DNA of 64,000 nt from a virus (IMGVR_UViG_3300005529_000001:272882-336881), one strand, 5' to 3'; numbered from the stretch's first letter, positions 1 to 34,885 are shown. Made by a program: numbers and translations. Notes: generated by a model not told the origin, from the letters alone.

Positions 1-395
1 TGTGGGATACCCCTCGCTTGGCCTGCCCCGCCAGCGAGCTCAACAGCCGTTTGTCCTAGGCTACGATCACTGACGAGTTTGGGCAAGGTTGTTACTGCGG
101 TGTCGGCCAAGATCGATTCCATGATCGGGTTACCACCCGCGTTCGCTTTGATCCTGTCTTTTAGTTCTGCGGTCGCTTGGCGACCACCGGGCAAAGGAGT
201 ATCTAGTCGGGGATCAAAACCAGGCTGTCGTCGCCCGCCATTGGTCCTGGTCCTGTTTTCCCGCACTGAGCCTTGGGCCTGTGCGTGAGGGACCAGCCTA
301 GAAGCGCTTGCTTGCACGTTTCCAAGTCCTTCGCTAAGAACCTCGACGATCAGTTCTTTAACTAATGCTTTTAGCTCGCCCCGCGTCAACGGCAT
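1..395 (-). CDS. hypothetical protein, 5'-partial gene (start at 395, runs off window edge)
   Basis: Manual translation of minus strand from ATG at 395-393 is open to position 1 (MPLTRGELKALVKELIVEVLSEGLGNVQAS...); not in ORF track because incomplete. Confidence 0.4.
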   Translation of the reverse strand, partial: MPLTRGELKALVKELIVEVLSEGLGNVQASASRLVPHAQAQGSVRENRTRTNGGRRQPGFDPRLDTPLPGGRQATAELKDRIKANAGGNPIMESILADTAVTTLPKLVSDRSLGQTAVELAGGAGQARGIP

Positions 396-398
396 CTT

Positions 399-893
399 TC
401 ACCTGTTCTTACGTAGGTCTCTCAGAGCTAGTTGCCGTTGTAACGGCCCAACCCTGTCCAACATCAAGATACCGTTAAGATGATCGATCTCGTGTTGTAC
501 AATCCGTGCAGCCCAATCGACAAAAGCTTCTTTGTGAGGTTTGCCCTCAACATCAAGGTACTCCACAACGACCCAAGCATGCCTGGGAACAGCTAATTTG
601 ACCCCAGGTAACGACAAACAACCTTCATCATCTGTCGTCTTGTCGTGTGATGTATCAATGATTATCGGGTTGATTATTGCACGAAGTTCGTTTCCTTGTG
701 CACCTGCGGTCGGATCCATCACCAAGATCTGGATTGTTGAGTTCACTTGGGGTGCCGCGAGTCCCACGCCATCACCAGCGTACATTGCCAGCGTCATCTC
801 CTCAACGAGCTTCGCCAACGTAGCATCAAAACGCTCAACGGGAGCGCAGCTCCACTTGAGATCTGAGCTGGGATACTCAACGATGTTTAGCAT
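399..893 (-). CDS. def: peptide deformylase
   Basis: All three PDF motifs: GVGLAAPQV (motif I), EGCLSLPG (motif II), QHEIDHLNG (motif III). Confidence 0.9.
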   Translation of the reverse strand: MLNIVEYPSSDLKWSCAPVERFDATLAKLVEEMTLAMYAGDGVGLAAPQVNSTIQILVMDPTAGAQGNELRAIINPIIIDTSHDKTTDDEGCLSLPGVKLAVPRHAWVVVEYLDVEGKPHKEAFVDWAARIVQHEIDHLNGILMLDRVGPLQRQLALRDLRKNR

Positions 894-1654
894 CAGCCTG
901 GTCTCTTCTTCCGAGCAGCCAATCGTTCCTTAACATCAGGCTGCTGCATCGCTGCGCGAGTCCGCTCTTTGATCAGTTGCTTTCGCTCATCTGTCATGTT
1001 CGCACGAGCGGTTTGAGACTGCTTCTGACGGTACGCTGGATTGGTGTGGGCTGCTTTGATGTTGGCTCGTCCTTCTACGGACTGCAATCCCGCTAGTTGC
1101 TTCTCATGGACTTCAGGACGTTGCATTGCTTCCATGGTTCGTTCAGAGACCATCTTCCGACGTTCGTCAGATGACATCTGCTCGACAAATTTGGCGTAAC
1201 GCTCGGACTCGTACATTGCTTCAGACGTTCGTTTGGAGATCGTCTCGCGTACTTCGGGGCGTGACATTGCTTCACGTTGACGCTGCTTCCATGATGGATC
1301 AGCGAGGACCATGCCCTCACGGGTGCGCTGAGAGATGAGTTGACGGGTTGCTTCAGACTTAGGACCTGATCCGTTGCCACCCTTCGTCATGTTGTAGCCG
1401 TTTGGCTTCTGCGTGTTGAGTTCCTTGATGTAGTAACGTTCGAAAGACTTAGCCTCCTTGAGTGTTTCAATACCGTCAAGGATCACTTCATGTGTGAACG
1501 CGTCAGGACCGTGTTCACGAATTGCTTTCATGAAGTCTTGCTCACCACCCTTGAAAGCACACGAAACATGTCCATCCCAACGACGTGTCATCGTCTGTTT
1601 GGTATAGCCGATATAACGCATGTTTTCACGGGTGTGACAGTAGATCAGGTACAT
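893..1654 (-). CDS. GIY-YIG homing endonuclease (I-TevI-like) with C-terminal tandem DNA-binding repeats
   Basis: N-terminal YLIYCH..YIGYT..RW..H and YYIKELNTQKPNGYNMTKGG closely parallel I-TevI FWIKELNSKINGYN; C-terminal four repeats of ~SERTxEAMxRPEV. Confidence 0.85.
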   Translation of the reverse strand: MYLIYCHTRENMRYIGYTKQTMTRRWDGHVSCAFKGGEQDFMKAIREHGPDAFTHEVILDGIETLKEAKSFERYYIKELNTQKPNGYNMTKGGNGSGPKSEATRQLISQRTREGMVLADPSWKQRQREAMSRPEVRETISKRTSEAMYESERYAKFVEQMSSDERRKMVSERTMEAMQRPEVHEKQLAGLQSVEGRANIKAAHTNPAYRQKQSQTARANMTDERKQLIKERTRAAMQQPDVKERLAARKKRPG

Positions 1655-1691
1655 GTAATGATCTTACGTCATCTCAACACAAGTGTAACGA

Positions 1692-2108
1692 CTATCCTAC
1701 GCCCGGCCAGTTGGTACCATCGGGCGCCGAGCCCGTGATGTTGAAGAAGTTCTGGAGCGGGATCGTTGTCAAGCCTGCCGCAACAGAAAATGAGCACGGG
1801 CCCGAGGAGCTCTGCAAGAACAGCTGGGTGATCCTCCACTCAAGAGTCAATGTCTGACCCGGCAAGATCGTGGTGTAGTTGGTTGAGTGTGCAAGCCCGT
1901 TGTACGTCACCCCAACCTGAAGGTTGGGACCCTGGGCAATGGTGCCCGTCGAGAGGTTGGTGACACTGACGAACCGGGTCACCATCCCAAACTTGAGCGT
2001 CATCGGGGTGGGCGTTGCGGGCGCGATGGATGATGTCATCCATGGCAAAGCCGAAGACTGGAACTCTGCGGCGTACCCTGCTCCGCCGTATGGATTACCG
2101 AGGGGCAT
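1692..2108 (-). CDS. hypothetical protein (Thr/Gly/Ser-rich, likely virion-associated)
   Basis: 138 aa ORF immediately downstream of prohead protease in same orientation. Confidence 0.4.
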   Translation of the reverse strand: MPLGNPYGGAGYAAEFQSSALPWMTSSIAPATPTPMTLKFGMVTRFVSVTNLSTGTIAQGPNLQVGVTYNGLAHSTNYTTILPGQTLTLEWRITQLFLQSSSGPCSFSVAAGLTTIPLQNFFNITGSAPDGTNWPGVG

Positions 2109-2111
2109 CTG

Positions 2112-2771
2112 TCACCTCACCTTGCACGAAAGAATCTCATTGAGCACCCGGTCAATTCGATCACTACGCTTGAAGACTTCTCGCAGCTCTTCTTCGTCAA
2201 TGACCTTGCCTTCTGGGATCATGAAGGCACCGGGAGTTGAAGGCTCGGACACCATGTCCCAGCAGATCAGTTGGAAATCGTCTTGCACAACGTAGTACTC
2301 GCCCTGCTTCCGCGTAGACCCAACACCGCGAGAGCTGATGCCCAGCTTGATGCCAGACTCCACCAGTCCCTTCAGGATGGCACCAGAAGGCGTCTTGTCA
2401 AGCACTTCAATGGTTCCCACTACTGCACCATTGGCTTCCATGTACGCTTCCGTGACGACGTGTGACACGTTTTTCAGGTTCACCACGCTCGAGTCAGGAT
2501 GGTCCAGCTCGCCGACAGCACGGTGCTCGATGATAAACTTTTGGTAGTTTCTGACCTCACGATCAAGGACAGCTTTCGGATAGATGCGACCGTTCTGGTT
2601 CAACGTATCAGCTTTTTGCAGGATACCCTTCATCAAGATCTTGGGGGCTTGTGGGACCTCAACTGTCCTCCCATCAGCTTCTTTGATCAGCTTTGGGGGT
2701 TGTTCGACCCTCTCGATCTTGAAATCAAAGACATCATAGTTCTCTAGACGCCTTAGCTTAATGTCGCTCAT
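2112..2771 (-). CDS. prohead core protease (T4 gp21 / peptidase S77-like)
   Basis: NGRIYP, GELDHPD, GISSRGVGS and VVQDDF motifs typical of T4-type prohead proteases; positioned after portal/scaffold. Confidence 0.65.
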   Translation of the reverse strand: MSDIKLRRLENYDVFDFKIERVEQPPKLIKEADGRTVEVPQAPKILMKGILQKADTLNQNGRIYPKAVLDREVRNYQKFIIEHRAVGELDHPDSSVVNLKNVSHVVTEAYMEANGAVVGTIEVLDKTPSGAILKGLVESGIKLGISSRGVGSTRKQGEYYVVQDDFQLICWDMVSEPSTPGAFMIPEGKVIDEEELREVFKRSDRIDRVLNEILSCKVR

Positions 2772-3631
2772 GTTTCCTCCGATGTCAGTTCTGAACTGAG
2801 CTTAGTGTACAACATGAACCGAGTCACCGTTGCATCGTCTACGCTCTCAAGCGTCTCGCTCATGATGAGCTGTCGAGCTTCCATCAGCTTCTTGCTGACA
2901 TATTCTGTGTCATTGCTCTGACGAGCATAGTTGTCGATCTTGACCAACAAGTTGTCACGGATCTCTTCAAGCTTCAAATGAATTGACTTTGGATCGTCAT
3001 TGGCAGTTGAGAACGAATAAGCTCGCAGGAGTTGCTTCTGCTCAGAAGAGAGAACGCCAGCGTACTTCTCATTCAGCTTCTTCATCATCAGTTTCATCAA
3101 CAGACGCCCTGAGCCTGGCGTTTCGGCTTCCGTCAACTCCGCATCGGTGGGCTGAACCTTTTCGGACACAAGCCACTTGACAACCGCGTCTTCGTACTGA
3201 GCTAGCCGGCTTAAGTCAGCGCCGGGCGTGCGCCAATCGTTGATCAATGTCTGGATAGTTGCGATTATCTTGTACTCGTTGACGTGCGCATCATAGAAGT
3301 TCTCGTCATTGAGACCCTTGTTGATGGCGCCGATCAACAAAGACTTTTCTTTGTCAAGCAGCTTGACATCATGTGCACGAGCTGCGGACTTTGCTTCTTG
3401 TAGGATCGATGCAGCAACTGCCTCGCTCTTGACGGTCGTTTTCACCAATGAATTGATCAGACGATACTCTTTAAAGAGCTCAGAACCGGGCTTGAAGTGC
3501 CTGCGGATCAACCTCAAAGCCGCGTTAGAACGCCTGGAGTCATTACGAACCACCGCTTGTGAGATGCTGAGAACCAGAAACTCATAGAGGAGACCCGTGT
3601 TGCGCTTTTTGTTGTGACCCCTGCCGCTCAT
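2768..3631 (-). CDS. putative prohead scaffold protein
   Basis: 287 aa charged, predicted helical protein located between portal and prohead protease; no catalytic motifs. Confidence 0.35.
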   Translation of the reverse strand: MSGRGHNKKRNTGLLYEFLVLSISQAVVRNDSRRSNAALRLIRRHFKPGSELFKEYRLINSLVKTTVKSEAVAASILQEAKSAARAHDVKLLDKEKSLLIGAINKGLNDENFYDAHVNEYKIIATIQTLINDWRTPGADLSRLAQYEDAVVKWLVSEKVQPTDAELTEAETPGSGRLLMKLMMKKLNEKYAGVLSSEQKQLLRAYSFSTANDDPKSIHLKLEEIRDNLLVKIDNYARQSNDTEYVSKKLMEARQLIMSETLESVDDATVTRFMLYTKLSSELTSEET

Positions 3632-5778
3632 TCGTCTTCCCCGTCGTCGATGATAAATACATCGCTTTCATGAAGCTGGTGACCGCTCAACGATCCACTC
3701 TCAACAAGCTCTACATCAACTGATCCGTTATTGCCATCGATCTCATCCTGGACATCGCGACCCTCGGACAGGACCTGGTTTGTGTTGTTCCGGGCTGCTT
3801 CCCACGTCTTGGTCATCTTGCCCAGGATGCTAGCAACATCTGGGGGCAACCCCATCCTGTTACCGGCGCTAATGAACTGAGGCGTTTCGTTCAACGTCTG
3901 TTCAATCTGATCTTTGGCCTCAGCAAACGGGTTTGAGATAACGCTCTTCATCCAATCAGCGTCTGTTGGATCTTCCATGGCATGGTTGTCAATACCCGTC
4001 ATCTTGACGAAGTCTGGCAAGTGAGTCTTGCTGGCACCATGAGTCCTACGCCGTGAGCGGTTGTAAAGAGCACGTTGCAGCTGAGACTGTGGCTTGACGG
4101 GAGGATCTTTGCTGTTTCCCGCTACCTTCAATGCAAATGACTCGTTGTCATCACGGTCATCGCCACCCGTCAGGAGCTGATGGCTGGGGTTCTCTTCTTC
4201 TTCGGCTTCTTCCCCAGCGTTTTCTTCAGGCGGCGTTTCTCCGCCGGCTTCTTCTCCACCTGCTTCGCCTCCCTCAGGAGCAGCTCCGCCTCCACCACCT
4301 CCCCCAAAGATGTCGTCAGTGCCTCCGCCAGTGTCTTCACCACCCGCTCCGCCAGCGACTCCCTCGATCGTGTCATCGATTTGTTTCTCCGCCATCCGCT
4401 CTTCATCAAGCGCCTCGACCTGCTCATCGTTAAGGCCCATGATTTCTTTGCGGATGAATTTCTTGCTGACAACGCCCTCAGGGGCTGAGCCGCCGATCTC
4501 GAACTTAGCACGCCACAGCTCGAGCTTCTGCTGTTGAGCGACCGTTGACGGGTTGCTTAGCCGCAACGTAAAGTTCTGCAAATCCTCGCTGTCATAACCG
4601 TGCGCATACAGGTGGATGATCGCTAGCTTGTTCAGCTCAGCCATCATTGTCTTTTGGACAACGTTGATTGTCCGGCTGAAGCGGATGTCTTCCTGAGCAA
4701 GCGTTGCCTTGCTAGAGAGCATCTCATCGTATCCCAAGTAGGCTCTGGGGATCTTAAGAGCCGCAAAGAGCTTTTTCTGGATGTACGCTACGTCCTCGAC
4801 GGCGGCGGTGTTCTGCCCGCCGGCTAACGTGTCGATCTTGGTTCCCGACTCTCCACCACGGACTGGGATGAAGAAGTCCTCCTCGACCGACATTGGATTG
4901 TAACGTAGGTCAACTCGTCCCGTGTTCCGATCAACGACCGGGGTCGTCCTCATCTGTTGGCGTTGTTGCTCGATGTAGGTGTTGACTTCGTTGGCGGGGA
5001 TGTTTGCGACATCAATGTAAAAGACGCGGCGCTCGGGAGCACGAACGACACGGTAAACCAACATCGCGTCCTCGATCAAGATCAACTGGCGCCAGATGCG
5101 GCGCGCTGGCTCGATGATCGAAGAACCATAGGGCAGGAACATGTCGTTGCCCAACAACCGGAAGTGAGTGACTTCCCAGTTTTCAAGCGTTCGGTTACCG
5201 AGAGTCACCCACCGGTAACGGACAGCGAACGGATCGTCCCTATCATAGTTCTCTTCACGCTCAATCTCGTTGACCGGGATCGGGAAAGCATTGATGACAC
5301 CGTATTCAGGAGAAACGTCGTTGTAGAGGAAGAAATCACCATACTTGCAGAGGTTTCGAGCCCACGAACGGAGGTTGAACTCGACGTTCAGGACGTTGTA
5401 AAACAAGTCCTCAAGCAGCTCTTTGATCTTCTCGTTGTCCGAGTAGATGTGAAGGACACGGCCCTTCTCGTCTTGGGCACACGTCTCATCAGCATAGATG
5501 TCCATCGCTGCCGCGATCTCAGGAGTGTACTCCATCTCCTGGAAGTCTTGGTAGCGCATCAAGCGCTCGCTCAGGTTGTACGCATTGGACGTGATCGTCG
5601 CGTACGTTGGTGAGAGTGACTTCTGGAAGAGGAGGGTACCTGATGACTTTGTCTTGTCAGCGACGGCGATCGTCGTGTCAAGGGCGCGGATCTTTCGCTT
5701 GACGACAGGTCCTGAACGGAACAGCCGGGTCAGCCTGCGAAATAAGCTCTTTGGTTCTCTCCTTGCCATCTCGTTCAC
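3628..5778 (-). CDS. portal vertex protein (T4 gp20-like) with internal Gly/Glu low-complexity insertion
   Basis: 716 aa protein directly between large terminase and scaffold/protease; portal-sized, remembered gp20-like overall architecture; acidic G-rich insert ~aa 480-540. Confidence 0.6.
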   Translation of the reverse strand: MNEMARREPKSLFRRLTRLFRSGPVVKRKIRALDTTIAVADKTKSSGTLLFQKSLSPTYATITSNAYNLSERLMRYQDFQEMEYTPEIAAAMDIYADETCAQDEKGRVLHIYSDNEKIKELLEDLFYNVLNVEFNLRSWARNLCKYGDFFLYNDVSPEYGVINAFPIPVNEIEREENYDRDDPFAVRYRWVTLGNRTLENWEVTHFRLLGNDMFLPYGSSIIEPARRIWRQLILIEDAMLVYRVVRAPERRVFYIDVANIPANEVNTYIEQQRQQMRTTPVVDRNTGRVDLRYNPMSVEEDFFIPVRGGESGTKIDTLAGGQNTAAVEDVAYIQKKLFAALKIPRAYLGYDEMLSSKATLAQEDIRFSRTINVVQKTMMAELNKLAIIHLYAHGYDSEDLQNFTLRLSNPSTVAQQQKLELWRAKFEIGGSAPEGVVSKKFIRKEIMGLNDEQVEALDEERMAEKQIDDTIEGVAGGAGGEDTGGGTDDIFGGGGGGGAAPEGGEAGGEEAGGETPPEENAGEEAEEEENPSHQLLTGGDDRDDNESFALKVAGNSKDPPVKPQSQLQRALYNRSRRRTHGASKTHLPDFVKMTGIDNHAMEDPTDADWMKSVISNPFAEAKDQIEQTLNETPQFISAGNRMGLPPDVASILGKMTKTWEAARNNTNQVLSEGRDVQDEIDGNNGSVDVELVESGSLSGHQLHESDVFIIDDGEDE

Positions 5779-5824
5779 CCCTCCATTCTGTCGGGGCCTC
5801 TCTTACCGTATATCACCGGGAGTA

Positions 5825-6142
5825 TCAGGCGGCCTTTTTCTCACCCTTGGAACTGAGAGAAACCACCTTGGGTTCCTTCTTGACACGCGGAACGTAAGAA
5901 GCGGGGGTGCTCAGCATGTTCTCAAGAACCTTCTCAAGCTCACCGAGGTGAGGAGTACAGGCATTGATCGCTGCTGGAGGGGCTTTTTCCTTGAATGATT
6001 CGACGGCCGCCAGGAGCTTGCTAGCAACGCCGACGATGCTGTTGATCGTCTTGTGATCAACCTGCTCGTTCACCGTTCGAACCTCTTCGGCGATGATCTC
6101 CTTGAGCCTCTCGAGCGTCACCTTGGGGGTTTTAGTCGTCAT
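5825..6142 (-). CDS. hypothetical protein
   Basis: 105 aa ORF between terminase and portal, same strand. Confidence 0.4.
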   Translation of the reverse strand: MTTKTPKVTLERLKEIIAEEVRTVNEQVDHKTINSIVGVASKLLAAVESFKEKAPPAAINACTPHLGELEKVLENMLSTPASYVPRVKKEPKVVSLSSKGEKKAA

Positions 6143-6181
6143 CGTGTCATCCTTCTGTGGTTGTAAGTATCCACTCTCGGA

Positions 6182-7828
6182 TCACTTCCTGAGCCAGTCG
6201 AAGTCCGAGACAAAACGACCGTAGGGACTACGTTGCAATTCTTGTGGGTTTCGTGGCCGCATGACGCTGTACGCGTTGACGCCGGCGATGTTCGGGTCGA
6301 CAAGCGGTTGGGCTTCGTTGATGTTCCCGGGCATCTTGTTGATGTCTTTCCTGTCCACGTGGGTGGCAGCTAACATTGCGTATGCCATCTCGCGCGCTTG
6401 TTCGCTGACCTGACCACCACCTTCGATGAGCCATGTTCCGATCGCCAAGCTCAGGACCAGGTCATCCCACGAGTCCTTTCCCGCAAGAGCTTTGTTCCCT
6501 TCCCAGATGAACGACTGGAGCTGGTCAAACAGGCGTCGCGAATATGACCTCAGTTGCTTGTTCCTGATCAACTCTTCTAGCTTAGCCAAGATCTGTGTTC
6601 GGGTCTTCTGGTTTGTGTTTGGAAACCCAGGTAGCTCGTCCTTAGGATCGATGGGCATGTAGTTGAACGGGTCACCCGTGTGCTTGGGATAGTAGAGCTT
6701 TTTGTAGTTGATCTGGTCACGTAGTTTCACACAGACCAGGTATCCGAAGGTGTTTTGTTCTGGGATTATGAGGGCATCGCAGTACTTTTTGCCCCACTCC
6801 GCTAGCAAGTCTGCCAAGTGCTCTGGCGGGATCTTACCCATGTACTCAGCACACACCTCATTGTCAACGGTGTCAATGACATGGAACGCTGAGTAGTCAT
6901 GCGCATCACCACGGCTGACGTCCGCGCTCAACACATAACGGTGACCCGCGACAGGCGGGCTCCAAACCCAGACACCGCCCGCAGGCCCCTCTTTCGAGAT
7001 GGGTGGCATGATCATTTCACGCAGGTAATCGAGCTCTTCGGGCTGGAGGAATGTGTCACCTGATGCAATGAAGTCACACATGAACTCTTGCGCAATCTGA
7101 CGCTTGTTCATGCCCTTTGATTCGTTCTTGAACCATGCTTCATCGTGTTCAGGATGGACGGTCCAGTGAAGCCGGATGGGGTTGAAGCCGTTGAGTCCCG
7201 CTTCGGCTTCCGTCCACAAACGGTAATACTGCCCGCCGACGCCCTTGGGAGTCGATAGCACGATCGCCTTGCCACCCGTCGAGATCGTTGGTTTCAGACC
7301 CGTCCAGATCTCTTCAAAATCACGAATGATAGCAGCTTCATCAACTATCAGAAGCGACAATGCTTCTGATCGGCCCGCATCTTCAGATGTTGGGATGGCA
7401 ACAACCTGCGAGCCGTTGTCAAAAGTAATGGCTTGCTTGGTGGGCTCAAACTTGGGCAGCAACAACCACTTGGGCAAATTGTCAAGGATGACCTTGCACT
7501 TTTTGATCATGTTCATCGCGGTGGGAAGCTTGGTCGCGATGATGAGGATGTTCTGGTCCTTGTAAAAGATGGCGAGCCACGTTGCGTACGCTGCACATAA
7601 CGTAGACAGACCCAGCTGTCTTGACTTCAAGATGATGTTAAGACGGTGTTCTATGAACTGCCTGACGCAGTCATCCTGAAACGGGTACGTTTCAAATGGG
7701 AGCAAGCCTCGAGCGGGGTGCTGGATCTTGCAATACTTCTTCATGAAGTAGACAGGATCCTTGCCACACTTGATTATCTCCTCGATCTGCTCCTGCTTTG
7801 ACAGGGGTTTTGGAGCAGCTTTCGTCAT
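6182..7828 (-). CDS. terL: terminase large subunit (T4 gp17-like)
   Basis: Walker A-like KSRQLGLST (T4 SRQLGKT), Walker B LLIVDEAA, C-terminal RNaseH-like nuclease region (LSADVSRGDAHDYSAFHVID). Confidence 0.9.
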   Translation of the reverse strand: MTKAAPKPLSKQEQIEEIIKCGKDPVYFMKKYCKIQHPARGLLPFETYPFQDDCVRQFIEHRLNIILKSRQLGLSTLCAAYATWLAIFYKDQNILIIATKLPTAMNMIKKCKVILDNLPKWLLLPKFEPTKQAITFDNGSQVVAIPTSEDAGRSEALSLLIVDEAAIIRDFEEIWTGLKPTISTGGKAIVLSTPKGVGGQYYRLWTEAEAGLNGFNPIRLHWTVHPEHDEAWFKNESKGMNKRQIAQEFMCDFIASGDTFLQPEELDYLREMIMPPISKEGPAGGVWVWSPPVAGHRYVLSADVSRGDAHDYSAFHVIDTVDNEVCAEYMGKIPPEHLADLLAEWGKKYCDALIIPEQNTFGYLVCVKLRDQINYKKLYYPKHTGDPFNYMPIDPKDELPGFPNTNQKTRTQILAKLEELIRNKQLRSYSRRLFDQLQSFIWEGNKALAGKDSWDDLVLSLAIGTWLIEGGGQVSEQAREMAYAMLAATHVDRKDINKMPGNINEAQPLVDPNIAGVNAYSVMRPRNPQELQRSPYGRFVSDFDWLRK

Positions 7829-8208
7829 CAGCTGATCTCGAAGACAACCCTCCGGCGGTAGTAAGCAGTCCGCAGCGGGTTATGGACGTTCATGTTGATG
7901 ATCTCCAAGTTGTCTACGCTTGAAAGCTCGGAGACCTTGAGTGTCAACCCAGAGAGATCCTTGTAGCGTGATTTGATGCTTGCCACTTCAGCGTCCAAAA
8001 CCGACTCTGACTCTTGGACATGATCTCTTTTCGTCTGGATCATCTCTTTCTCAGTGACAAACTTTACGATGACAGCGTAAGAAGCCATCATCCGGTCGGG
8101 ACCCAACATGCTCCACTTGACAGAATACGCACAAGTTTTCGGAGTCGAAGACCGTCCCCAAGTCGTGTCTGTCGCCTGTCCGAGGGCGTTGTAATCGATG
8201 TCAGCCAT
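7828..8208 (-). CDS. hypothetical protein; positional candidate for small terminase subunit
   Basis: 126 aa ORF translationally coupled (ATGA overlap) to upstream side of terL; no recognisable motif. Confidence 0.3.
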   Translation of the reverse strand: MADIDYNALGQATDTTWGRSSTPKTCAYSVKWSMLGPDRMMASYAVIVKFVTEKEMIQTKRDHVQESESVLDAEVASIKSRYKDLSGLTLKVSELSSVDNLEIINMNVHNPLRTAYYRRRVVFEIS

Positions 8209-13507: not shown

Positions 13508-13906
13508 TTACTTCAACAAGCCAAGGAGCTTCAGCTCCTTCTCGGTCATTATCACCAAAGTGACACCGTGGGCTTGACACCACCCTGCAGCCGCCTTCAG
13601 CTTCTTCTGGACCCGAGCTTGGTCCAACTTCCGTTGGGGCTTGATCTCGACCAAAAGTTGTTGGCCATCTCGTAGTTGGACAAGGAAGTCAGGCCAGTAT
13701 TGTCTGACTTTTCCCGTCTTTTTGTTCGAGATGTACTTGATCGACACATCTTCATACCGGTACCCCACGACGCTGTCATCAGCGTCTAGGTGTTGCATGT
13801 ACGCAAACTCCCATCCCGATCGGTAATGACACTCCTGGCCTGTCTTTGGAGACACATGGATGCCCGTGTGGTAACGCTTCTTCCGTTTTCGCTTTTTAGC
13901 TACCAT
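13508..13906 (-). CDS. PD-(D/E)xK nuclease, TnsA/endonuclease-like (possible freestanding homing endonuclease)
   Basis: YWPDF...LLVEIKP (D...E-x-K) core; same core as C-terminus of ORF 16791..17651. Confidence 0.5.
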   Translation of the reverse strand: MVAKKRKRKKRYHTGIHVSPKTGQECHYRSGWEFAYMQHLDADDSVVGYRYEDVSIKYISNKKTGKVRQYWPDFLVQLRDGQQLLVEIKPQRKLDQARVQKKLKAAAGWCQAHGVTLVIMTEKELKLLGLLK

Positions 13907-13913
13907 GATGTCA

Positions 13914-16772
13914 TCAAAAATCGTGCTTAATCTTGAACATCACACGATCACCCGTCCGTTTTTGGATCGGCTGCGCTAGTGTCGTCTTCATCACCACGTT
14001 CATATCGCTGTCGTGGAAGTTGATGTTGGTAACATAAGAAAAAGTGTTTTCAGGATCGTTTGGGTAACCTGTCGGTGGTACAGCCTTGAAGGCTGGGTTG
14101 CTCGATGAGTTCAGCTGGTTGTTGGGTGCGATGGCGTCAATCTTCATCACGTGGATGTGTTGCTCACCCCGCAAGTACATGCTGTACTGGTTGGCACCAT
14201 AGAAATAGAGGTGCGGGCTCTTGATGACGACCTCCCCCTCATCGTAATAGACATTACCCACGCTGTTCCACGTTGACTGGCTTGTCACGCAATCAGCGCG
14301 ATAGATGTTGCCACGACCATCATCAGCCAGGGTGATGCTGATGGGTCCTACAAAGCTGGCGGTGTTTGACAGAGCGCTAGCACCGTACAGGCTTGAAAAC
14401 AACAGATCAGGGTCGGTAAATGTCAATGTCGTGGGATTGATCCGAAACCCGTAAAACAAGTTGCTAACATCAAAGACAACAACTTCGTTTGATGATGGGT
14501 CTTGTGTCCGTTGGTAGACCGTCAGCGGAGCACCTGCCTCGACGTCCGAACCCGAGGGCACTGTGTTGATGAAGTTGAACATGGCTGGACCCGCCTTTTG
14601 GAAGGGGGTCTCAGGTGTAGCACCGATCTGTGTGTTAGCAAAAGCGTTAACCTGAACAGAGGGTTGCGTCCCATCATCAAATGCACCTGCTCCAAAGAGC
14701 AACGTGCTAGACATCACCATGTTATCAAGGTTGATGAAGCTAAGTTCATTAACACCCAAATCATCGACGGCGGTAACCAAGCTCTCCGATACCAACAACT
14801 GGAAACTGGGAACGAACAGCCCATCATCGCAGGGAAGGATTGTCAAGTTTCGTTTGATGACAAATGGCTGTGAATACAGGAAATCGTTACACGTTTCCGC
14901 GTTGGTTGATGTCTTGATCGCTACGCCAGTCAAATGATGAAGCAATGGGAAGTTTTCGCTAGCTAGGTCTTTGACAAAGTTCTCTAGGTTGATGTAATGA
15001 CCCGCTACTCCAAATGACAACGCAACGCTAAAGGGTTGGGTAGTTGAACCGTTGACCTCTTGGAAAGGTGTGACCAAGATACCACCGTGATCGATGACAA
15101 ACTGACGGTAGGGTGCCTGGTTTGCAAAGAAGGGTGGAACATAAAGGGCATACGTGTTGTCTAGGAATGTCGGACCCACGCTGGTGCTGGTTGCGATGTC
15201 AAGGTCTGACATGTAACACCGACGGATCGCAACGTCATGGAGCTCAGCATTCAACGGGTGATCAAATGCATAAGTTGCAGGTGTTTCAATGCCCGCAATG
15301 GGCCACATGTTGTTGAGGCCATCACGAAGGGCTGGCTGGTTTGCAAAGAACGCAGCCTGCGGGTTACTGCTGTTGTTTGGACCGTTGTAGTAGTTTCCCA
15401 AGACCAGCGTTGCAGGTTGGTCTTGGGTCACTCCCGGGATCTTTCCGTAAGAGTGTGAACCAAAGGTGACGATGTCCTGAAGAGATGGCGTGATCTGGTT
15501 TAGTGGCACCGTGAAAGTGCCAACATCTACGCCATCGACATTAAACGTTCCGACGCCGTTATTGGTGTATGTGGTCCCCCACCTGACGACAACGTGATGC
15601 CAGTGGTTTTGCCACAAGACGTTGTCGTTAGATTGGAAAACCAAGTATGCTGATGGGTGAGCGCTAGCTGACTGGTTTCCAAACGTTCCAGACGCAATGT
15701 ACCAGTCGCCTGACGATGGTTCTTGGTATAAGCTGCTGGGCGGTATGTCAGCAGATGATGATAGCTGCAATTGCAAGCGGAAACCAACAGGACGACCATT
15801 GGTGTCCTTGCTTGATCCAGTCACCAACGACAGACAGAACGTCGATGACAGGTGAAGGATGGTTCCTGCCTTGAACGTTCCGTTTGGGTTATCGGTGCTG
15901 TACCTGGGATTGATGTGGAAATCAAAACTGAACGAGCCCGACGGAGTGTAAGTGCCGCTACAGAAGCCATCGTGCCTGACCAGCAAGCCCTTTCCTCCAT
16001 CGATGTTGGGATACAAAATTGCGCTGTCGGATGGCACCACAGATGCTGTGAAGAAATTCAATGAGTTGTAGTTTGTGTAAGCCCAATGTGCGGTTGGGTA
16101 GACGCTGCGGTAGAAAGTGTTGAGTTGGTCTTTGATGACTAGCTTCCGCAGAGTGTTGCTGTTGAAATCGGGCGGGGGACTGAAGCGTTGTGGATCAAGA
16201 ACTTCTTTCAATCGTGCAGCTTGCGGTTGAGCTGCGCAAGCGTTCATGTATTGTTGCATGATCGCTGGAAAGCTAGCGACCAACTGAGCGTTAGAGATCG
16301 TTCCATGGATCAACGAGAGGTATGTCCCATCTCCTGGAAGCAACGTGCTTCCCGATTTCATGTAGATGGTCCCACTCACCGTCACAGAAGTTGGGTTTGA
16401 GAGAACGAAACTCGATGGCGTCAATGCAGGATCACCCGCGGAAGGAAACTGGATCCCAACGAGCTTTCCGTTCGCAAAGGTGCAATAAAAGTTGCCATTG
16501 AACGGAACCGAGACGGAGAAATACGGGTTCCGCAGGCTCTTTGCAACAAAGGTGACCTGGCGTAACAGCGATGATAAGTCAGCATCGTCATGAGCCGACT
16601 CAACAAACGAGGAATCAGGCTGGACGTCTTTCTGGATCAGCGAGTGTCTCGGAAAGAGGTAAACGGAACCCGTTGACCCGTGGAGCGATGAGGACGTGTA
16701 TGACCTGATCGGGTTAGTAACGACGGTGAATGTTTCAACGTCTGATGGGTCTACGGCGTAGATCGATGGCAT
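13914..16772 (-). CDS. large virion structural protein, paralog of ORF 17648..18892 at both termini (candidate contractile-sheath family member with insertion domains)
   Basis: N-terminal AVDPSDVETFTVV vs paralog EILPSDIKTA; C-terminal ENTFSYVTNINFHD...PIQK...DRVMFKIKHDF vs EQTFTYVTSVGMYD...PVQK...RDLTFRVRLDF; Ser/Thr/Asn-rich. Confidence 0.5.
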   Translation of the reverse strand: MPSIYAVDPSDVETFTVVTNPIRSYTSSSLHGSTGSVYLFPRHSLIQKDVQPDSSFVESAHDDADLSSLLRQVTFVAKSLRNPYFSVSVPFNGNFYCTFANGKLVGIQFPSAGDPALTPSSFVLSNPTSVTVSGTIYMKSGSTLLPGDGTYLSLIHGTISNAQLVASFPAIMQQYMNACAAQPQAARLKEVLDPQRFSPPPDFNSNTLRKLVIKDQLNTFYRSVYPTAHWAYTNYNSLNFFTASVVPSDSAILYPNIDGGKGLLVRHDGFCSGTYTPSGSFSFDFHINPRYSTDNPNGTFKAGTILHLSSTFCLSLVTGSSKDTNGRPVGFRLQLQLSSSADIPPSSLYQEPSSGDWYIASGTFGNQSASAHPSAYLVFQSNDNVLWQNHWHHVVVRWGTTYTNNGVGTFNVDGVDVGTFTVPLNQITPSLQDIVTFGSHSYGKIPGVTQDQPATLVLGNYYNGPNNSSNPQAAFFANQPALRDGLNNMWPIAGIETPATYAFDHPLNAELHDVAIRRCYMSDLDIATSTSVGPTFLDNTYALYVPPFFANQAPYRQFVIDHGGILVTPFQEVNGSTTQPFSVALSFGVAGHYINLENFVKDLASENFPLLHHLTGVAIKTSTNAETCNDFLYSQPFVIKRNLTILPCDDGLFVPSFQLLVSESLVTAVDDLGVNELSFINLDNMVMSSTLLFGAGAFDDGTQPSVQVNAFANTQIGATPETPFQKAGPAMFNFINTVPSGSDVEAGAPLTVYQRTQDPSSNEVVVFDVSNLFYGFRINPTTLTFTDPDLLFSSLYGASALSNTASFVGPISITLADDGRGNIYRADCVTSQSTWNSVGNVYYDEGEVVIKSPHLYFYGANQYSMYLRGEQHIHVMKIDAIAPNNQLNSSSNPAFKAVPPTGYPNDPENTFSYVTNINFHDSDMNVVMKTTLAQPIQKRTGDRVMFKIKHDF

Positions 16773-16790
16773 GATTCCTGTCTAACTACC

Positions 16791-17651
16791 CTACACCACG
16801 ATCCCAAGGTCCCTCATGACCTGTCGGGTGATGTGGCGGTAATCGTTGAACCCGTTGGCCCGACTGTACTCTCGACCCGCCGCAGCGGTGTTCATCACCC
16901 GCTCCGTCAGCAGGAACTCTTCTGGTTTGACCTCCCAGATCTCCTTTGAACCATCGGTAAAGTAGACGATGAAGTCGGGCACGTGCCATCGCTTGTTGTT
17001 GTTATAGTAGTATGGGATCTTCAGGCTCTCGTATTCCCAGCCCTCGACCGTCGGGCTGGCGTCAAGGAACTTCATCGCCGCTTCCTCCCAGCTCGACTTG
17101 AAGAAGTGTTCCTTGGTATTCTTCACCGACACGTAGGTTCCCTTCTTGTTCTGGGTGCCGTAGGACCGGAACCTGCCCTCAGTGATCGCCTGTGCCTTCT
17201 TCTCTGACATCTTGGCGCGCGTCTCTTCCGAGTGCTTGCGGCCGTACATGCCGTTGTTGGTGCCAGACCGCTTCTCACCCTTCGAGACCTCGCTCAGGTG
17301 GCGTTTCGTCTCCTCGGTGTGGCTCTTCCCCAGCCAGGGTCGCCATTCTCCTCGGGCTGCCTTTTCTTGGATCGTGGCTTTCGCTTTGGCGTGTGACGCA
17401 GGCGAGTTCAGTGCCTGGATCGACTTCTGCCACGTCTCCGGGTGATCGTGCTTGTACTTGCCACGACACTTGTTGTCGCAGAAGTGCATCACTCCGCGAT
17501 CCCTGGTCTTTGACCCTTCGATGATCGCTTCACAGGCATCACACTTGAAGCGATGGACAATGCTCTTGCGGTTGGTGACGAGAGATCGCCGCTCGATAAT
17601 CTCCAGGAGCATGGCAATAAGTACCACGCACACTGGCGTTAGCAACGTCAA
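16791..17651 (-). CDS. homing endonuclease-like protein: NUMOD3 DNA-binding repeats fused to PD-(D/E)xK nuclease domain
   Basis: Two GKSHTEETKRHLSEVSKG / GRKHSEETRAKMSEKK NUMOD3-type repeats; C-terminal WHVPDFIVYF..EIWEVKP nuclease core; sits between two paralogous structural genes. Confidence 0.65.
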   Translation of the reverse strand: MTLLTPVCVVLIAMLLEIIERRSLVTNRKSIVHRFKCDACEAIIEGSKTRDRGVMHFCDNKCRGKYKHDHPETWQKSIQALNSPASHAKAKATIQEKAARGEWRPWLGKSHTEETKRHLSEVSKGEKRSGTNNGMYGRKHSEETRAKMSEKKAQAITEGRFRSYGTQNKKGTYVSVKNTKEHFFKSSWEEAAMKFLDASPTVEGWEYESLKIPYYYNNNKRWHVPDFIVYFTDGSKEIWEVKPEEFLLTERVMNTAAAGREYSRANGFNDYRHITRQVMRDLGIVV

Positions 17652-18892
17652 AAATCGAGGCGAACCCTAAAGGTCAGATCCCTCTCAGGCGACTTCTGGA
17701 CGGGCCTGGACAACTTGGCGACCGCCAACAGGTTGTCGTTTGCGTCATACATGCCGACACTGGTGACGTACGTGAACGTCTGCTCGGTGTCTTCCTGACC
17801 CACATCGATGACAACGATGCGGTTTGTCGTGTCGGTGAACGTTGGGTTCGATGTGTAGTTGAACTCATCAGCTTCACACCTGCAGAAGATCAACGTTGAG
17901 TTGATGTTAGTGATGTTCTGAAACGTCAATGCTGTCTGTGATCCAGACCCCATGCGACAGGAAGCGATGTGATCAACGATGTTATCGATCGAGGCGCTGA
18001 CCATAAAGTCAGGGATGAACGCTGACTTGAACTGCGTCTGGGTACCCGAAGCTCCAAGGACTGTCGTTCCTGGCGGGGCCATCGCATCAATGGTTCCAGA
18101 AACGAATTGCGATCCTGACGTGATCTTTGACATGTCAAGGACCAGGACCCCGCGATCATAGAACATCAAGCCCACGTTACGGGCGGTGTTTGCGCTGTCA
18201 ACGACGTTGCCGACCTGCCCACCAAACGTCGACAGTTTGTTGGTCGCTGCTCCGATGTCAGTGTAGATAGCAGACCCTGACGTTGACGTGATAAATAGGT
18301 TGGGAACGCAGAGGTTGTTGGTCTCAGCTGGGTGAGTGCCGTCTCCAGTGCCAGCTGCTGATTCGTTGATCGACGCCGTCTGGAAGAAACGCATTGCGAA
18401 CGTTTCACGCTTGATGCTGTCACGTGCAAACAGACGCTTGAACGCAACGAACAACGTGACATCCATCTGATCAGCGGGGTTGCTCGAATCGATCGGTGAC
18501 GTGAACTTGCTTGTGGGTGAACCCAACAACGCGGTGGCAAACTGCCGGTAGACATCCATCTTCTCACGAACCATCAGCGATGAAGATGGGAACAGCTCCT
18601 TGCCAGCTGAGTCAACGCCAGTCTGGCTGGTCAGCTCAGTTGCTCCGCCCGGTTGCAAACCAACCGTCATGTCAAAGATGGAGTTGGCAGTTTGAAGGGT
18701 AAAATCCTGATCGTAAACAGTCTGGAACAGAGAGCTAGTGACTCCGGGACCGACGCCTCCCGTCACAAACACCTGGTACTTGCGACGAGAGACTGAACCG
18801 CTGATGTCCTGTTGAAGAACATCGATCAACTGGTTCAAGAACGATCTAGCGGTCTTGATATCGCTGGGAAGAATCTCTTTGAACGTTGCCAT
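17648..18892 (-). CDS. virion structural protein, shorter paralog of ORF 13914..16772 (candidate sheath-family)
   Basis: Shared N- and C-terminal motifs (see 13914..16772); 414 aa is minimal-sheath size. Confidence 0.5.
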   Translation of the reverse strand: MATFKEILPSDIKTARSFLNQLIDVLQQDISGSVSRRKYQVFVTGGVGPGVTSSLFQTVYDQDFTLQTANSIFDMTVGLQPGGATELTSQTGVDSAGKELFPSSSLMVREKMDVYRQFATALLGSPTSKFTSPIDSSNPADQMDVTLFVAFKRLFARDSIKRETFAMRFFQTASINESAAGTGDGTHPAETNNLCVPNLFITSTSGSAIYTDIGAATNKLSTFGGQVGNVVDSANTARNVGLMFYDRGVLVLDMSKITSGSQFVSGTIDAMAPPGTTVLGASGTQTQFKSAFIPDFMVSASIDNIVDHIASCRMGSGSQTALTFQNITNINSTLIFCRCEADEFNYTSNPTFTDTTNRIVVIDVGQEDTEQTFTYVTSVGMYDANDNLLAVAKLSRPVQKSPERDLTFRVRLDF

Positions 18893-18909: not shown

Positions 18910-19626
18910 TCACAGTTTCTGGTTGATGATGACAGCAATGTCTTGCACCGCGCCTGACTGGACGCCTGTCACCTTCATGTATGTCTTGATGAGCGTCTTA
19001 TCAGCGGTTGTCCCATAGACCTGAAACACTGCGTTAGACAGTGACTTGACGCTGATTGTGAACTGGACGCTGGATCCACCGAATGAGTTCTCAGCGGGTG
19101 ACCGGGTCAGGATGTACGTGGCACGCTGGTTACCGTCCACGTTCTCAGGAGTATTCTGCAAGATCTGAACGAACAGGTTGGGAACGTCGAGAATGAACGT
19201 CTGATCCCGAAGCTCAACATCGATCGTCGACTCATTCTGGATTGTCTGTTGGACGGTTACTGCAGCTGTCTTTTGGGTGTTGAGACCCAGGGTGATTGTC
19301 TCGTTGAGACCACTGACGTTGGCGTCGCCCGACAATGACAGCGCGGGCATGTATAGGAGGTTTGGGTTGCTGACACTGATCAACTTGTATTTTTGCGCGA
19401 TAGCCTGGTTCGTCAGAGCTTCAAAGATCGAGGTGTTCTTTTCGATCTTTTCTGCACCGACAGTGCGGCCGTACTTGGTGACGATGCCGTAGTTTACCTC
19501 GTCATCGCCGAGAGCAAACTTGTGAATCGAGAATGACCCGTCATTACGAGCCAAAAACTGTCGCCCGACGTCTGTCAGGACAGCGTCCAGAATGATGTTG
19601 TTGCTGCTGTTGTCGAGGAAGCCCAT
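18910..19626 (-). CDS. structural protein with tail-tube-like N-terminus; N-terminal paralog of ORF 28805..29827
   Basis: MGFLDNSSNNIILDAVLTDVGRQFLARNDGSFS vs MSGILDNKTRVLDTILTIEGRRQLSRGGVDISY; loosely resembles T4 gp19 FARPNLFQVEI start. Confidence 0.4.
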   Translation of the reverse strand: MGFLDNSSNNIILDAVLTDVGRQFLARNDGSFSIHKFALGDDEVNYGIVTKYGRTVGAEKIEKNTSIFEALTNQAIAQKYKLISVSNPNLLYMPALSLSGDANVSGLNETITLGLNTQKTAAVTVQQTIQNESTIDVELRDQTFILDVPNLFVQILQNTPENVDGNQRATYILTRSPAENSFGGSSVQFTISVKSLSNAVFQVYGTTADKTLIKTYMKVTGVQSGAVQDIAVIINQKL

Positions 19627-28804: not shown

Positions 28805-29827
28805 TCACTGAAAGACCAAAGTGAACAGGTGAATGAACGTGTCAGTTCCTTTTTCATCAACAGTCACTTTGCCAACGAAATAGATGTGTGCAGTTGAGTG
28901 TTCGGGATCTCCTGTCCGGTGCCTACCGTAGTCAACGATGTCGAGCTTTTTGAGAGTGTCATAGTTCTGTTCAAAGAACTGTCCGACTAGGTTGTTTGTT
29001 GTTGACGTGGGGTCAAAATTGATCTGCTTCATGTAACCCCAAGCTTCGTAACACCGAAGCTCAAAAGCGATTTGCTCATATCGCAATGCAGAAAACCAGA
29101 ACCAAGTGTAGATGCCCCAGGGAACATACGATCCCAAAAAGCTAACCTTGTTGACGTCCTGGATGCCCCAATCACCCAATGATGATTCGTCAATAACCTT
29201 GTTGATTGGTGGCAAGTACTTGAAGTTGGGCAAGTGACTGAACCGAGGATCGCTAAAAATGCTGTCTAACGTGTTGACATGCGTTGTGTATTGAGCTGGG
29301 TTCCTGATGGGTCTTTGATCGTTGATTTGGAACGTGATCGATGATGGACCTGCCAAAAACTGATCGTCTTCAAAGAATGAATCGACAGTCGACAAGACAC
29401 GCAACTTAGAGAAGTTGTCTGCTGAAGCTCCCAACAAGTCATTGGCCGCGGCGATGAAGGCTGTACCTTTGACCGCAGACGTTCCCTCACCGACCCCACC
29501 AATGAGCGAGCTCGTTACGCCCGTGTACGTGTAATCGATGATCTTTCCAAAACCCGTGTTGACCCCTGATGAATTCCTAAATGGCAAGACATTGCCCGAG
29601 TCATCAGCCTGGAACGTGATGTCATCCTGGGGCAGTTGACAAGACTCGAGGTAGATCCTTTGGGTCGCGTCCTGGCTACCGCTCGCAACATCAGCTGCGT
29701 AGTGCGTCAAGCCATCGGAAAATGACACGTACGAGATGTCAACACCGCCTCGTGACAGCTGTCGCCTGCCCTCGATCGTCAGGATGGTGTCAAGGACACG
29801 TGTCTTGTTGTCTAGGATTCCCGACAT
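28805..29827 (-). CDS. structural protein, N-terminal paralog of ORF 18910..19626 (tube/baseplate-tube-like candidate)
   Basis: Shared N-terminal LDN..LD..LT..GRRQL motif; first gene of structural operon with purine-rich RBS. Confidence 0.45.
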   Translation of the reverse strand: MSGILDNKTRVLDTILTIEGRRQLSRGGVDISYVSFSDGLTHYAADVASGSQDATQRIYLESCQLPQDDITFQADDSGNVLPFRNSSGVNTGFGKIIDYTYTGVTSSLIGGVGEGTSAVKGTAFIAAANDLLGASADNFSKLRVLSTVDSFFEDDQFLAGPSSITFQINDQRPIRNPAQYTTHVNTLDSIFSDPRFSHLPNFKYLPPINKVIDESSLGDWGIQDVNKVSFLGSYVPWGIYTWFWFSALRYEQIAFELRCYEAWGYMKQINFDPTSTTNNLVGQFFEQNYDTLKKLDIVDYGRHRTGDPEHSTAHIYFVGKVTVDEKGTDTFIHLFTLVFQ

Positions 29828-29916: not shown

Positions 29917-31377
29917 TCAGAGGATCTTAGACGCAAGAGTGGCAAGCTCCGATCTCTCGCCCTTGATGAGGGTGACATGGCCGGCGATAGGGTAATCTTT
30001 GAACCGCTCGACGGCGTAAGTCAACCCGTTAGTGAAAACATCCACATGAACGTTGTCAATCTGCTCAATATCACCCGTCAAGATGATTTTGGTGCCATCT
30101 CCCACACGAGTAATGATCGTCTTCAGCTCGTGCATCGACAGGTTCTGGGCTTCGTCGATGACAATGAAGGCGTTCGGGATCGACCTTCCCCTGATGAAAG
30201 TGATCGCTTCAATCTCAATGAGACCACGCTCCTGCATCAGGTTCAGGTACATGTTATCGTCAAACGCTTGCTTTTCGTTGCCTGCACGCCGCTGTCTCTT
30301 GGGACGGTTCCTCTTGGTGTCCATCAGGAAGTTGAGGTTGTCACGGACGGGAGCGATCCACGGTTCCATCTTCTCCTCAAGGGTCCCTGGCAAAAAGCCA
30401 ATGTCCTTACCAACGGGCTGGACTGGACGGGTGACGATCAGCTTGTCATACCGTGCAACAGCTGGGTTTCCTAACGTCTTCAGTTGCTCGAGACCTGCCG
30501 CAAGCGCGAGCAGCGTCTTGCCCGTGCCAGACGGGCCCACCAGCGTCAACAGCTTGATCTTTTCATCAAACAACAAATCAAGCGAGAACTGCTGTTCTTT
30601 GTTCCTGGGAGTCAAGCCAAACGCTTGTTCGATTTTCTCGACGGGAACAAGTGGCTTCTTGGGATCAATGCACTTCGCCAGGGCTGACTTGGTAGGTCGG
30701 CCATCGTCAAAAGCGTGCTTGATGACAACGATCTGGTTTGGGTACAGCTGATGATTACTTGTCAGGTCAAGCTCACCATGCTTGTAGAAGTGATCAATTC
30801 GTTCTTCTTCGAGCTCAATCACTTCAACGCCACGGTAAAATTTCTGCGGGCTGTCAACAGCCACACGCATCTTTTTGTAGTCTTCACACTTGACACCGAT
30901 GCTGTCACACTTGATCCTGACGTTGATGTCCTTTGACACCAAGATAGAACCATCGACGTGTTTGGCATAAGCGATGATCATGTTGTCAGGCTTGCCCAGT
31001 TCTAGCCCAGGCAACTGGACGTCTTTGATGGCGTCCATTCGCCCTACCTTTAGGGTCCCACCCTCGTGCAGCTGGACACCTGCGTAGAGACCGCCTCGTT
31101 CTCGAAGAGTGTCGAGCGATCGGGTCACTTGACGCGCATTACGTCCGACTTCATCGGGTCGGCTCTTGTGACGATCTAGCTCTTCTAAGACAATCATCGG
31201 GATGATGACGTCATTTTCTTCAAATGAAAAGATCGAGTTCGGATCGCTTAGAAGGACGTTGGTATCAAGGACGTACGTCTTCTTCTGGCTCATGAGATTT
31301 ATTGTTCTTTCTGTTGGTGCGTTGTGCACTGTTGGTTCTTTCCCTTTGGTTTCTTGAACATAGAAAGGGCCAACCAT
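29917..31377 (-). CDS. phoH: PIN-domain PhoH-like ATPase (PhoH2/YlaK-type)
   Basis: N-terminal PIN (YVLDTNVLL..D..E), C-terminal P-loop GPSGTGKT and PhoH-like DEAQN box (VIDEAQNLS). Confidence 0.85.
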   Translation of the reverse strand: MVGPFYVQETKGKEPTVHNAPTERTINLMSQKKTYVLDTNVLLSDPNSIFSFEENDVIIPMIVLEELDRHKSRPDEVGRNARQVTRSLDTLRERGGLYAGVQLHEGGTLKVGRMDAIKDVQLPGLELGKPDNMIIAYAKHVDGSILVSKDINVRIKCDSIGVKCEDYKKMRVAVDSPQKFYRGVEVIELEEERIDHFYKHGELDLTSNHQLYPNQIVVIKHAFDDGRPTKSALAKCIDPKKPLVPVEKIEQAFGLTPRNKEQQFSLDLLFDEKIKLLTLVGPSGTGKTLLALAAGLEQLKTLGNPAVARYDKLIVTRPVQPVGKDIGFLPGTLEEKMEPWIAPVRDNLNFLMDTKRNRPKRQRRAGNEKQAFDDNMYLNLMQERGLIEIEAITFIRGRSIPNAFIVIDEAQNLSMHELKTIITRVGDGTKIILTGDIEQIDNVHVDVFTNGLTYAVERFKDYPIAGHVTLIKGERSELATLASKIL

Positions 31378-34279: not shown

Positions 34280-34885
34280 TCAGGCACCGATGATCTTGTC
34301 AACAATGCCTAGCTTGATCGCGTCTTCGGGTGTCAAAAAGTAGTCAAGCATCGGGCGCATAAAGTCCTTCTCTACTTTCTCCTTTGACATCTTTGTCTCT
34401 TTCACGAGAGCGCTGACCATCAGCTCCTGGAGCCGGCGCGCTTCTTTTGTCTCGTTTTCCATCTCAAAGATGTTTCCCATGACGCCTCCTGAGATCGGGT
34501 GGATCATGATGCGTGCAGATGCACCGATCAACCGCTTGCCCTTGACTCCAGATGCCAGCAAGAGCACGCCTGCCGACATCACCTTTCCCAAACCCACCGT
34601 GTGAACGGGACACGGCAAAAACTTGAGGATGTCATAGAGAGAAAACATCTCGTCAACGCTGCCACCGTAGGTTGACACAACAAGATAGATCGGGTTCCGA
34701 TTCAGGTTAGCGAGGTGTAGTAATTGCGCGATAACATTCGCAATCGAGTGTTCGCTGACCTCGCTATGCAAGTACACGATCCGAGTGTTGTCTACTTGCG
34801 ACGCTAGAGCACGAGTGAGATGCTCGATCTGATCTTCTTCTTCCGCAGTGACACGGTTCCGGTTTTCAAGCGTCGCTCGACCCAT
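34280..34885 (-). CDS. clpP: ClpP-family serine protease
   Basis: GKVMSAG (Ser), IMIHP (His), downstream Asp region; ClpP-sized (201 aa). Confidence 0.8.
   Translation of the reverse strand: MGRATLENRNRVTAEEEDQIEHLTRALASQVDNTRIVYLHSEVSEHSIANVIAQLLHLANLNRNPIYLVVSTYGGSVDEMFSLYDILKFLPCPVHTVGLGKVMSAGVLLLASGVKGKRLIGASARIMIHPISGGVMGNIFEMENETKEARRLQELMVSALVKETKMSKEKVEKDFMRPMLDYFLTPEDAIKLGIVDKIIGA

Follow-up and report, generated by a model that had tools for sequence, protein, structure and literature searches.

Two open reading frames (ORFs) on the minus strand of a 64,000-nucleotide stretch of viral DNA (IMGVR_UViG_3300005529_000001:272882-336881; hereafter the window), encoding proteins of 414 amino acids (aa; 17648-18892) and 952 aa (13914-16772), are supported by our analyses as structural-module paralogs that have diverged. 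The metagenomic contig that includes the window is 369,506 bp long (ENA ERZ27279688 k141_1055159), and the entire gap between the two genes is occupied by an ORF for a 286-aa endonuclease (16791-17651, minus strand). We favor, with moderate confidence, the interpretation that the two proteins represent type A and type B of an unannotated family of virion proteins belonging to an outer baseplate or fiber-attachment module of distant T4-like phages. Our confidence is limited to this level because the placement relies on synteny in distant relatives. The coordinates and sizes of the ORFs were correct in the original prediction, a reading of this DNA made before our analysis.

The paralogy is most evident at the C-termini, as had been claimed. 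The last ~95 aa of the 414-aa protein carry the family motif INST.YFCR..EFNYSSNPT...YITTVGLY..N.LLAVAKLSRP..K....L..RVRLDY, and a pairwise BLASTP alignment of the two proteins gave 26% identity across the last 98 residues (E 1e-8). Comparison of close-homolog profiles of the two proteins (A1 and A2) with hhalign gave a probability of 94.5% (E 7.6e-8), which increased to 97.8% (E 7.9e-13, 188 columns) with the diverse profile A3, consisting of 50%-identity cluster representatives of the 414-aa family and phage homologs. The 188 columns span aa 142-414 of the 414-aa protein (17651-18469, minus strand; also seen in the family alignments) and aa ~760-952 of the 952-aa protein (13917-14495, minus strand), extending the terminal motif by the segment pairs FKRLFARDSIKRETF / SNLFYGFRINPTTL and VGLMFYDRGVLVLD / VGNVYYDEGEVVIK. 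Based on this alignment, the common C-terminal module comprises ~190 aa in the 952-aa protein and not merely the ~45 aa originally proposed. It also aligns with short type-A (E 1.6e-9) and type-B (E 1.4e-7) paralogs from other phages. The resemblance proposed for the N-termini fared less well. It was undetected by BLASTP and whole-length hhalign, and when hhalign was confined to the N-terminus, where the register is kept from residue 1, the result was marginal (P 0.015-0.07 with the 414-aa family and 0.0011 with the paralog immuto_164), so that this similarity is suggestive and not established. The ~540 extra residues of the larger ORF are located internally. In a six-frame translation of the window, a hidden Markov model of the C-terminal 110 aa matched the two ORFs only, and no third copy of the module was found.

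Homologs of both proteins are numerous. The 414-aa protein has 3811 homologs at E <= 0.001, the best 120 of which are all at least 74% identical, and the 952-aa protein has 733, with identities of 50-81% for the best 120. In metagenomes, clustering of the family at 50% identity gives at least 1,832 clusters, and clustering at 90%, from a search limited to 8,000 candidates, more than 6,000; the cluster names are all "hypothetical" or absent. No matches to Pfam, PHROG, or NCBIfam were obtained for family members when the two ORFs and 47 diverse relatives were scanned, together with the neighboring large ORFs. Sequence and profile searches of PDB gave nothing credible with either ORF, with the alignments A2, A3, and A4, or with the 238-aa and 340-aa proteins described below. 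Weak matches to the Pfam "ig" model in 10 of the 47 A3 family members (best E 1.9e-4) were not counted as evidence of an immunoglobulin (Ig) fold, as we suspect that the YFCR motif in the C-terminal module gives rise to them. Literature searches on Mel-JY01, on Immutovirus, and on the sheath or baseplate of RM378 returned nothing on these proteins. The family is a very abundant and wholly unannotated group of predicted virion proteins in environmental T4-like and huge phages.

Searches by tblastn with three family members retrieved the same seven phage records each time: four Flavobacterium "immuto" records, Microcystis phage Mel-JY01, Rhodothermus phage RM378, and the uncultured 484-kb LR756508. 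With the 952-aa protein itself, tblastn found no annotated phage homolog. All-against-all scores divide the family into type A, including the 414-aa protein, immuto_164, RM378 p128, and four Mel-JY01 copies, and type B, including immuto_165, L010_297, L012_345, and Mel_591. The 952-aa protein occupies the B position, has a short B-type linker, and contains the motif DDG.GN.Y...VGNV.Y..G. In immuto, the gene order is gp25 (PF04965), a gp6-like gene (weak Baseplate_J match), ORFs of 369, 112, 1265, 403, and 219 aa, immuto_164 (337 aa, type A), immuto_165 (357 aa, type B), a fiber with weak Collar and Gp10_C matches, and tail spikes. The marine contigs L010 and L012 show an immuto-like order followed by Peptidase_S74-bearing fibers. 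In these three genomes, the family is therefore found in the wedge-to-fiber position taken by gp9-gp12 in T4. Mel-JY01 encodes a 211-aa protein, five adjacent family members (357, 352, 954, 718, and 591 aa), and then GIY-YIG, primase, and SbcC-like genes, which also follow the family genes in the window, while RM378 has a single copy (p128) preceded by p129. The five Mel-JY01 paralogs (L002 8418-17364), all annotated as hypothetical, are the largest tandem expansion seen.

Directly upstream of the family genes in the window is the gene for a 238-aa partner protein (18910-19626, minus strand), which is 80-89% identical in close relatives. Homologs of 219, 211, or 205 aa were found directly before the family genes of Mel-JY01 (E 5e-16), immuto (immuto_163, E 4e-15), RM378 (p129, E 1.4e-4), L010, and L012, so that the order 238-like, A, B is kept. 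In comparisons with related contigs (L003, L004, and L005), conservation among the neighborhood genes was highest for those of the 414-aa and 238-aa proteins. The 414-aa protein is 89% identical to its ortholog in L003 and 80% to that in L005, and the 238-aa protein is 89% identical to its L004 ortholog (aa 97-238 only) and 80% to that in L005. Identities to the L003/L004 and L005 orthologs, respectively, are 75% and 59% for the 952-aa protein, 86% and 67% for SbcD, 80% and 52% for SbcC, and 74% and 44% for the primase; for the N-terminal part of the large terminase (TerL), the identity to the L003/L004 ortholog is 84%. This conservation pattern fits a role of the 414-aa and 238-aa proteins as fixed structural subunits and a more adaptable role of the 952-aa protein. 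A 340-aa protein encoded further upstream (28805-29827, minus strand) and the 238-aa protein have a weak N-terminal motif of ~35 aa in common, G[FI]LDN..(I/V)LD..LT..GR..L (pairwise E 0.007), which also gives marginal and consistent matches to the 238-aa homologs in three phages. The motif may represent a common docking segment.

The 952-aa protein appears to be the host-directed member of the pair. Its AlphaFold2 model (mean predicted local distance difference test, pLDDT, 72.7; predicted template modeling score, pTM, 0.70) contains a domain matching the jelly-roll fold of concanavalin-A-like lectins, laminin-G domains, and pentraxins at aa ~270-530 (15183-15965, minus strand; approximate boundaries, taken from the pLDDT blocks), and its orthologs show weak Laminin_G_3 matches at the equivalent position. 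Closer to the N-terminus, aa 81-160 (16293-16532, minus strand) form a hypervariable cassette. In an alignment of 63 orthologs this region shows 6-9% identity and 67-82% gaps, compared with 40-77% identity in the rest of the protein, and it is swapped or deleted in most orthologs; the ortholog P0147 carries an additional Laminin_G_3 domain, which spans residues 78-208 and thus lies at about the place of the cassette. Conservation within the family is highest in the last 80 residues, yet these have a pLDDT of 34-62 in the model, as would be expected if folding of this segment required the oligomer. The lectin-bearing 952-aa member is probably a host-binding derivative and can reasonably be considered a candidate host-recognition protein. 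It differs from lectin-carrying receptor-binding and decoration proteins of other phages, where the lectin is at the distal C-terminus, in that its lectin domain is internal, between the conserved N-terminal segment and the C-terminal module.

The closest known parallels include the T4 proteins gp9, gp10, gp11, and gp12. These are likewise encoded after wedge genes of the gp25/gp6/gp7 type and before or next to fibers, and comprise several adjacent genes with a common C-terminal part. T4 gp10, gp11, and gp12 have been reported to have a common C-terminal fold and a common origin. The gene following the pair in immuto, with its weak Collar and Gp10_C matches, adds to the likeness. The family differs from the T4 proteins in lacking sequence similarity to them, in having its own motif and no Pfam model, and in a paralogy that is still visible in the sequence. 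If the pair is placed accordingly, the 414-aa and 952-aa proteins would be an old tandem pair. Multiple copies of the strongly conserved 414-aa protein, together with the 238-aa protein, would then build an invariant part of the baseplate periphery, and the 952-aa paralog would dock or oligomerize via the common C-terminal module, displaying the lectin domain and the variable cassette outward, where they may bind glycans on the host surface. It could thus replace the separate fiber genes that follow the pair in the smaller relatives.

Several observations weigh against this placement. The 340-, 826-, 1388-, and 658-aa ORFs upstream in the window could not be matched to gp25, gp6, or gp7 or to baseplate proteins of the relatives, and the baseplate assignment therefore relies on gene order in distant phages, at identities of 21-30%. 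No similarity was detected to the T4 baseplate proteins gp6-gp12 and gp53 in hhalign comparisons, a single-sequence test of low power, in which gp8-gp12 reached probabilities of <=1.3% against both family profiles. Pfam matches to Gp10_C, T4_gp9_10, or GP11 were likewise absent from the family. The conserved part is C-terminal, whereas fiber-type proteins usually dock by the N-terminus, and structure searches with the 952-aa model recognized the lectin domain only. In addition, the 952-aa protein is classed as type B by its position and linker length, the scores alone being undecided between A and B.

The readings originally put forward for the pair, contractile-sheath paralogs resembling those of PVC/Afp-type particles, in which domains are inserted into a conserved N/C core, or, alternatively, a T4 gp23/gp24-like major capsid and vertex pair, did not hold up, and a tempting misannotation is thereby corrected. 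The sheath reading does have a compatible architecture, with a weak N-terminal resemblance, a strong C-terminal module, and internal additions; the shorter paralog is highly conserved, and the termini are poorly modeled, as exchanged arms would be. However, neither ORF nor any of the 47 diverse relatives matched the sheath models PF04984 and PF17482 in Pfam at E <= 0.1-1, no sheath match was found in Pfam, PHROG, or PDB across 47 + 64 family members, and no sheath or capsid profile matched either ORF or the 47 + 10 relatives scanned. Comparisons by hhalign with T4 gp18, gp19, gp23, and gp24 and with the sheath, capsid, and tube proteins of immuto gave probabilities of <1%, and all comparisons of the two family profiles with 25 T4 virion proteins and these immuto proteins remained <3%. 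Canonical sheaths are furthermore encoded elsewhere in three phages carrying the family. The immuto sheath, immuto_229 (PF04984, 1.3e-14; PF17482, 1.2e-9), is at a locus separate from the family genes and next to a gp19-type tube gene. In Mel-JY01, a sheath annotated as "tail sheath C-terminal domain containing protein" is located at 32-34 kb (50.6% identity to the immuto sheath by tblastn), and in LR756508 an unannotated one at 207.6 kb (49.8%), both far from the family genes. These latter are found among baseplate and fiber genes instead of beside the tube gene, a neighborhood different from that of T4 gp18. Together, the negative comparisons and the separate sheaths of these three phages make the sheath reading very unlikely. 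The capsid alternative, suggested by the strong conservation of the 414-aa protein and by two paralogs of unequal size, can effectively be ruled out. The contig encodes its own 640-aa Gp23-family major capsid protein (PF07068) just past the window start, 3' of a T4-type portal and protease, so that the head genes follow the expected T4 order of portal, protease, and capsid protein; immuto also has its own Gp23, at a separate locus, and neither ORF is similar to gp23 or gp24. The head module of the window (1-8208, minus strand) includes TerL (6182-7828), a Portal_T4 portal (3628-5778), a 287-aa protein, and a gp21-type Peptidase_S77 protease (2112-2771), all on the minus strand. This module, the Gp23 gene, and a gp4 homolog described below identify the genome as that of a very large, distant T4-like phage, and neither ORF as its capsid gene.

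The main rival to the baseplate placement, possible in our judgment and at the same time fairly unlikely, is that both proteins are tail fibers or receptor-binding proteins, whose conserved C-terminal ~90-190 aa serve as a trimerization or assembly module functionally comparable to the intramolecular chaperone at the C-terminus of endosialidase-type fibers. The module is indeed the only part common to up to five adjacent Mel-JY01 paralogs (352-954 aa), and its combination of highest conservation and low confidence in the monomer model is often seen in intertwined oligomers. The genes also adjoin fiber and spike genes, and the 952-aa protein has the lectin domain and variable cassette. Unlike receptor-binding proteins, however, the 414-aa protein is conserved over its full length (74-91%), more so than the TerL and SbcCD encoded by these genomes. 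Moreover, Peptidase_S74 or other chaperone domains were not matched in either family, whereas the neighboring L012 fibers do match, and a cleavage site was not in evidence. An association with the neck, collar, or head, for instance as whisker- or decoration-like proteins, is improbable. It would agree with the gp4-like head-completion gene that directly follows the 952-aa gene, and display domains of the lectin and Ig-like kinds typically occur in head decoration proteins as well. The gp4 adjacency is specific to the lineage of the window, though, and the family genes of immuto, L010, and L012 lie between gp25/gp6-type baseplate genes and fibers, with no head genes near. Beyond the baseplate placement itself, we propose only tentatively, and with low confidence, that the N-terminal segment and the ~190-aa module constitute a large unannotated fold family specific to a deep T4-like branch that includes ~350-kb genomes, forming a baseplate or fiber-attachment device without a solved counterpart among phages, and that tandem expansion (from one to five copies) and lectin insertion make up a host-range cassette system.

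The gene separating the two paralogs encodes, as originally predicted, an endonuclease with NUMOD3 motifs and a PD-(D/E)xK domain. In its product, a Cys-rich N-terminus and two NUMOD3 motifs (E 1.2e-12) are combined with a C-terminal PD-(D/E)xK domain of the Tn7_TnsA-like_N type (E 4e-9) at aa ~171-269 (16848-17141, minus strand), in which PDF...EVK is intact, and the protein matches phrog_15427 "endonuclease" (E 4e-18). The TTG listed as its start codon overlaps the 414-aa gene at the stop codon, and an in-frame ATG is present 13 codons further in. The gene is absent from the close relatives L003, L004, and L005, where the flanking genes encode proteins of 59-89% identity and the same intergenic slot contains two unrelated small ORFs (in the 89%-identical L003/L004) or five (in L005). 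DNA homology to these relatives stops at the stop codon of the 414-aa gene and restarts at the start codon of the 952-aa gene, and this break exactly at the gene ends supports the homing-type insertion that had been proposed; by these comparisons, the middle gene is a putative free-standing homing-type endonuclease. On the other side of the 414-aa gene, the gap to the 238-aa gene is only 17 bp in the window, and in the relatives the corresponding gap contains GIY-YIG (L003 58-591, L004 433-966) or DUF7487-like (L005 3131-3802) genes. These endonucleases mark both flanks of the 414-aa gene as apparent landing sites for mobile endonucleases, in support of the homing interpretation. The gene would thus have settled in a hypervariable intergenic slot beside a highly conserved gene, and presumably propagates by cleaving the DNA of nearby relatives that lack the endonuclease, with repair of the break copying it in. 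An arrangement of two structural genes split by a mobile endonuclease is ordinary for large phages, and nothing in our results challenges the current understanding of phage structural biology.

The gp4 homolog is a 132-aa T4 gp4-like head-completion protein with a PD-(D/E)xK fold (13508-13906, minus strand; phrog_218, E 5.8e-26; PF08722, E 2.8e-18), which is similar to T4 gp4 by BLASTP (E 2e-12). Its gene is located directly after the 952-aa gene, and the position is kept in L003 and L005. The nuclease domain of the endonuclease (aa 171-269) is 35% identical to this resident protein encoded 3 kb downstream (E 8e-18) and is also similar to T4 gp4 (E 4e-7), indicating that the mobile endonuclease and the resident virion-assembly gene have one predicted nuclease fold in common within a single genome. 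In T4-like phages, related matches of the domain coincide with gp4-like genes or fall within terminase genes or next to them, and in Aeromonas phage 25 the match is at a locus labeled gp4 / "putative HNH homing endonuclease". The endonuclease resembles the free-standing Seg and Mob homing endonucleases of T4-like phages in being a stand-alone intergenic gene by conserved genes, in its sporadic presence, and in its NUMOD3 motifs. It differs from them in that Seg and Mob use GIY-YIG or HNH catalysis instead of a PD-(D/E)xK domain of the TnsA-N / T4 gp4-like type. The window thereby adds a case in which a gp4-like PD-(D/E)xK catalytic domain and NUMOD3 motifs are combined in one free-standing phage endonuclease.

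Other genes in the window include those for a GIY-YIG endonuclease (893-1654, minus strand) and a peptide deformylase (399-893, minus strand), both located between the protease and Gp23 capsid genes. On the same strand, a PhoH-like ATPase is encoded at 29917-31377, a ClpP protease (PF00574, E 2.6e-42) at 34280-34885, and a protein with a GroEL-like PHROG match at 37413-38609. A block on the plus strand (39287-60393) consists of sugar-nucleotide and glycosyltransferase genes, including a GT2 and two more glycosyltransferases, an epimerase, an aminotransferase, and two UDP-glucose dehydrogenase-like genes. After this block come nicotinamide adenine dinucleotide (NAD) salvage genes for a nicotinamide mononucleotide (NMN) adenylyltransferase-Nudix protein and a nicotinamide phosphoribosyltransferase.

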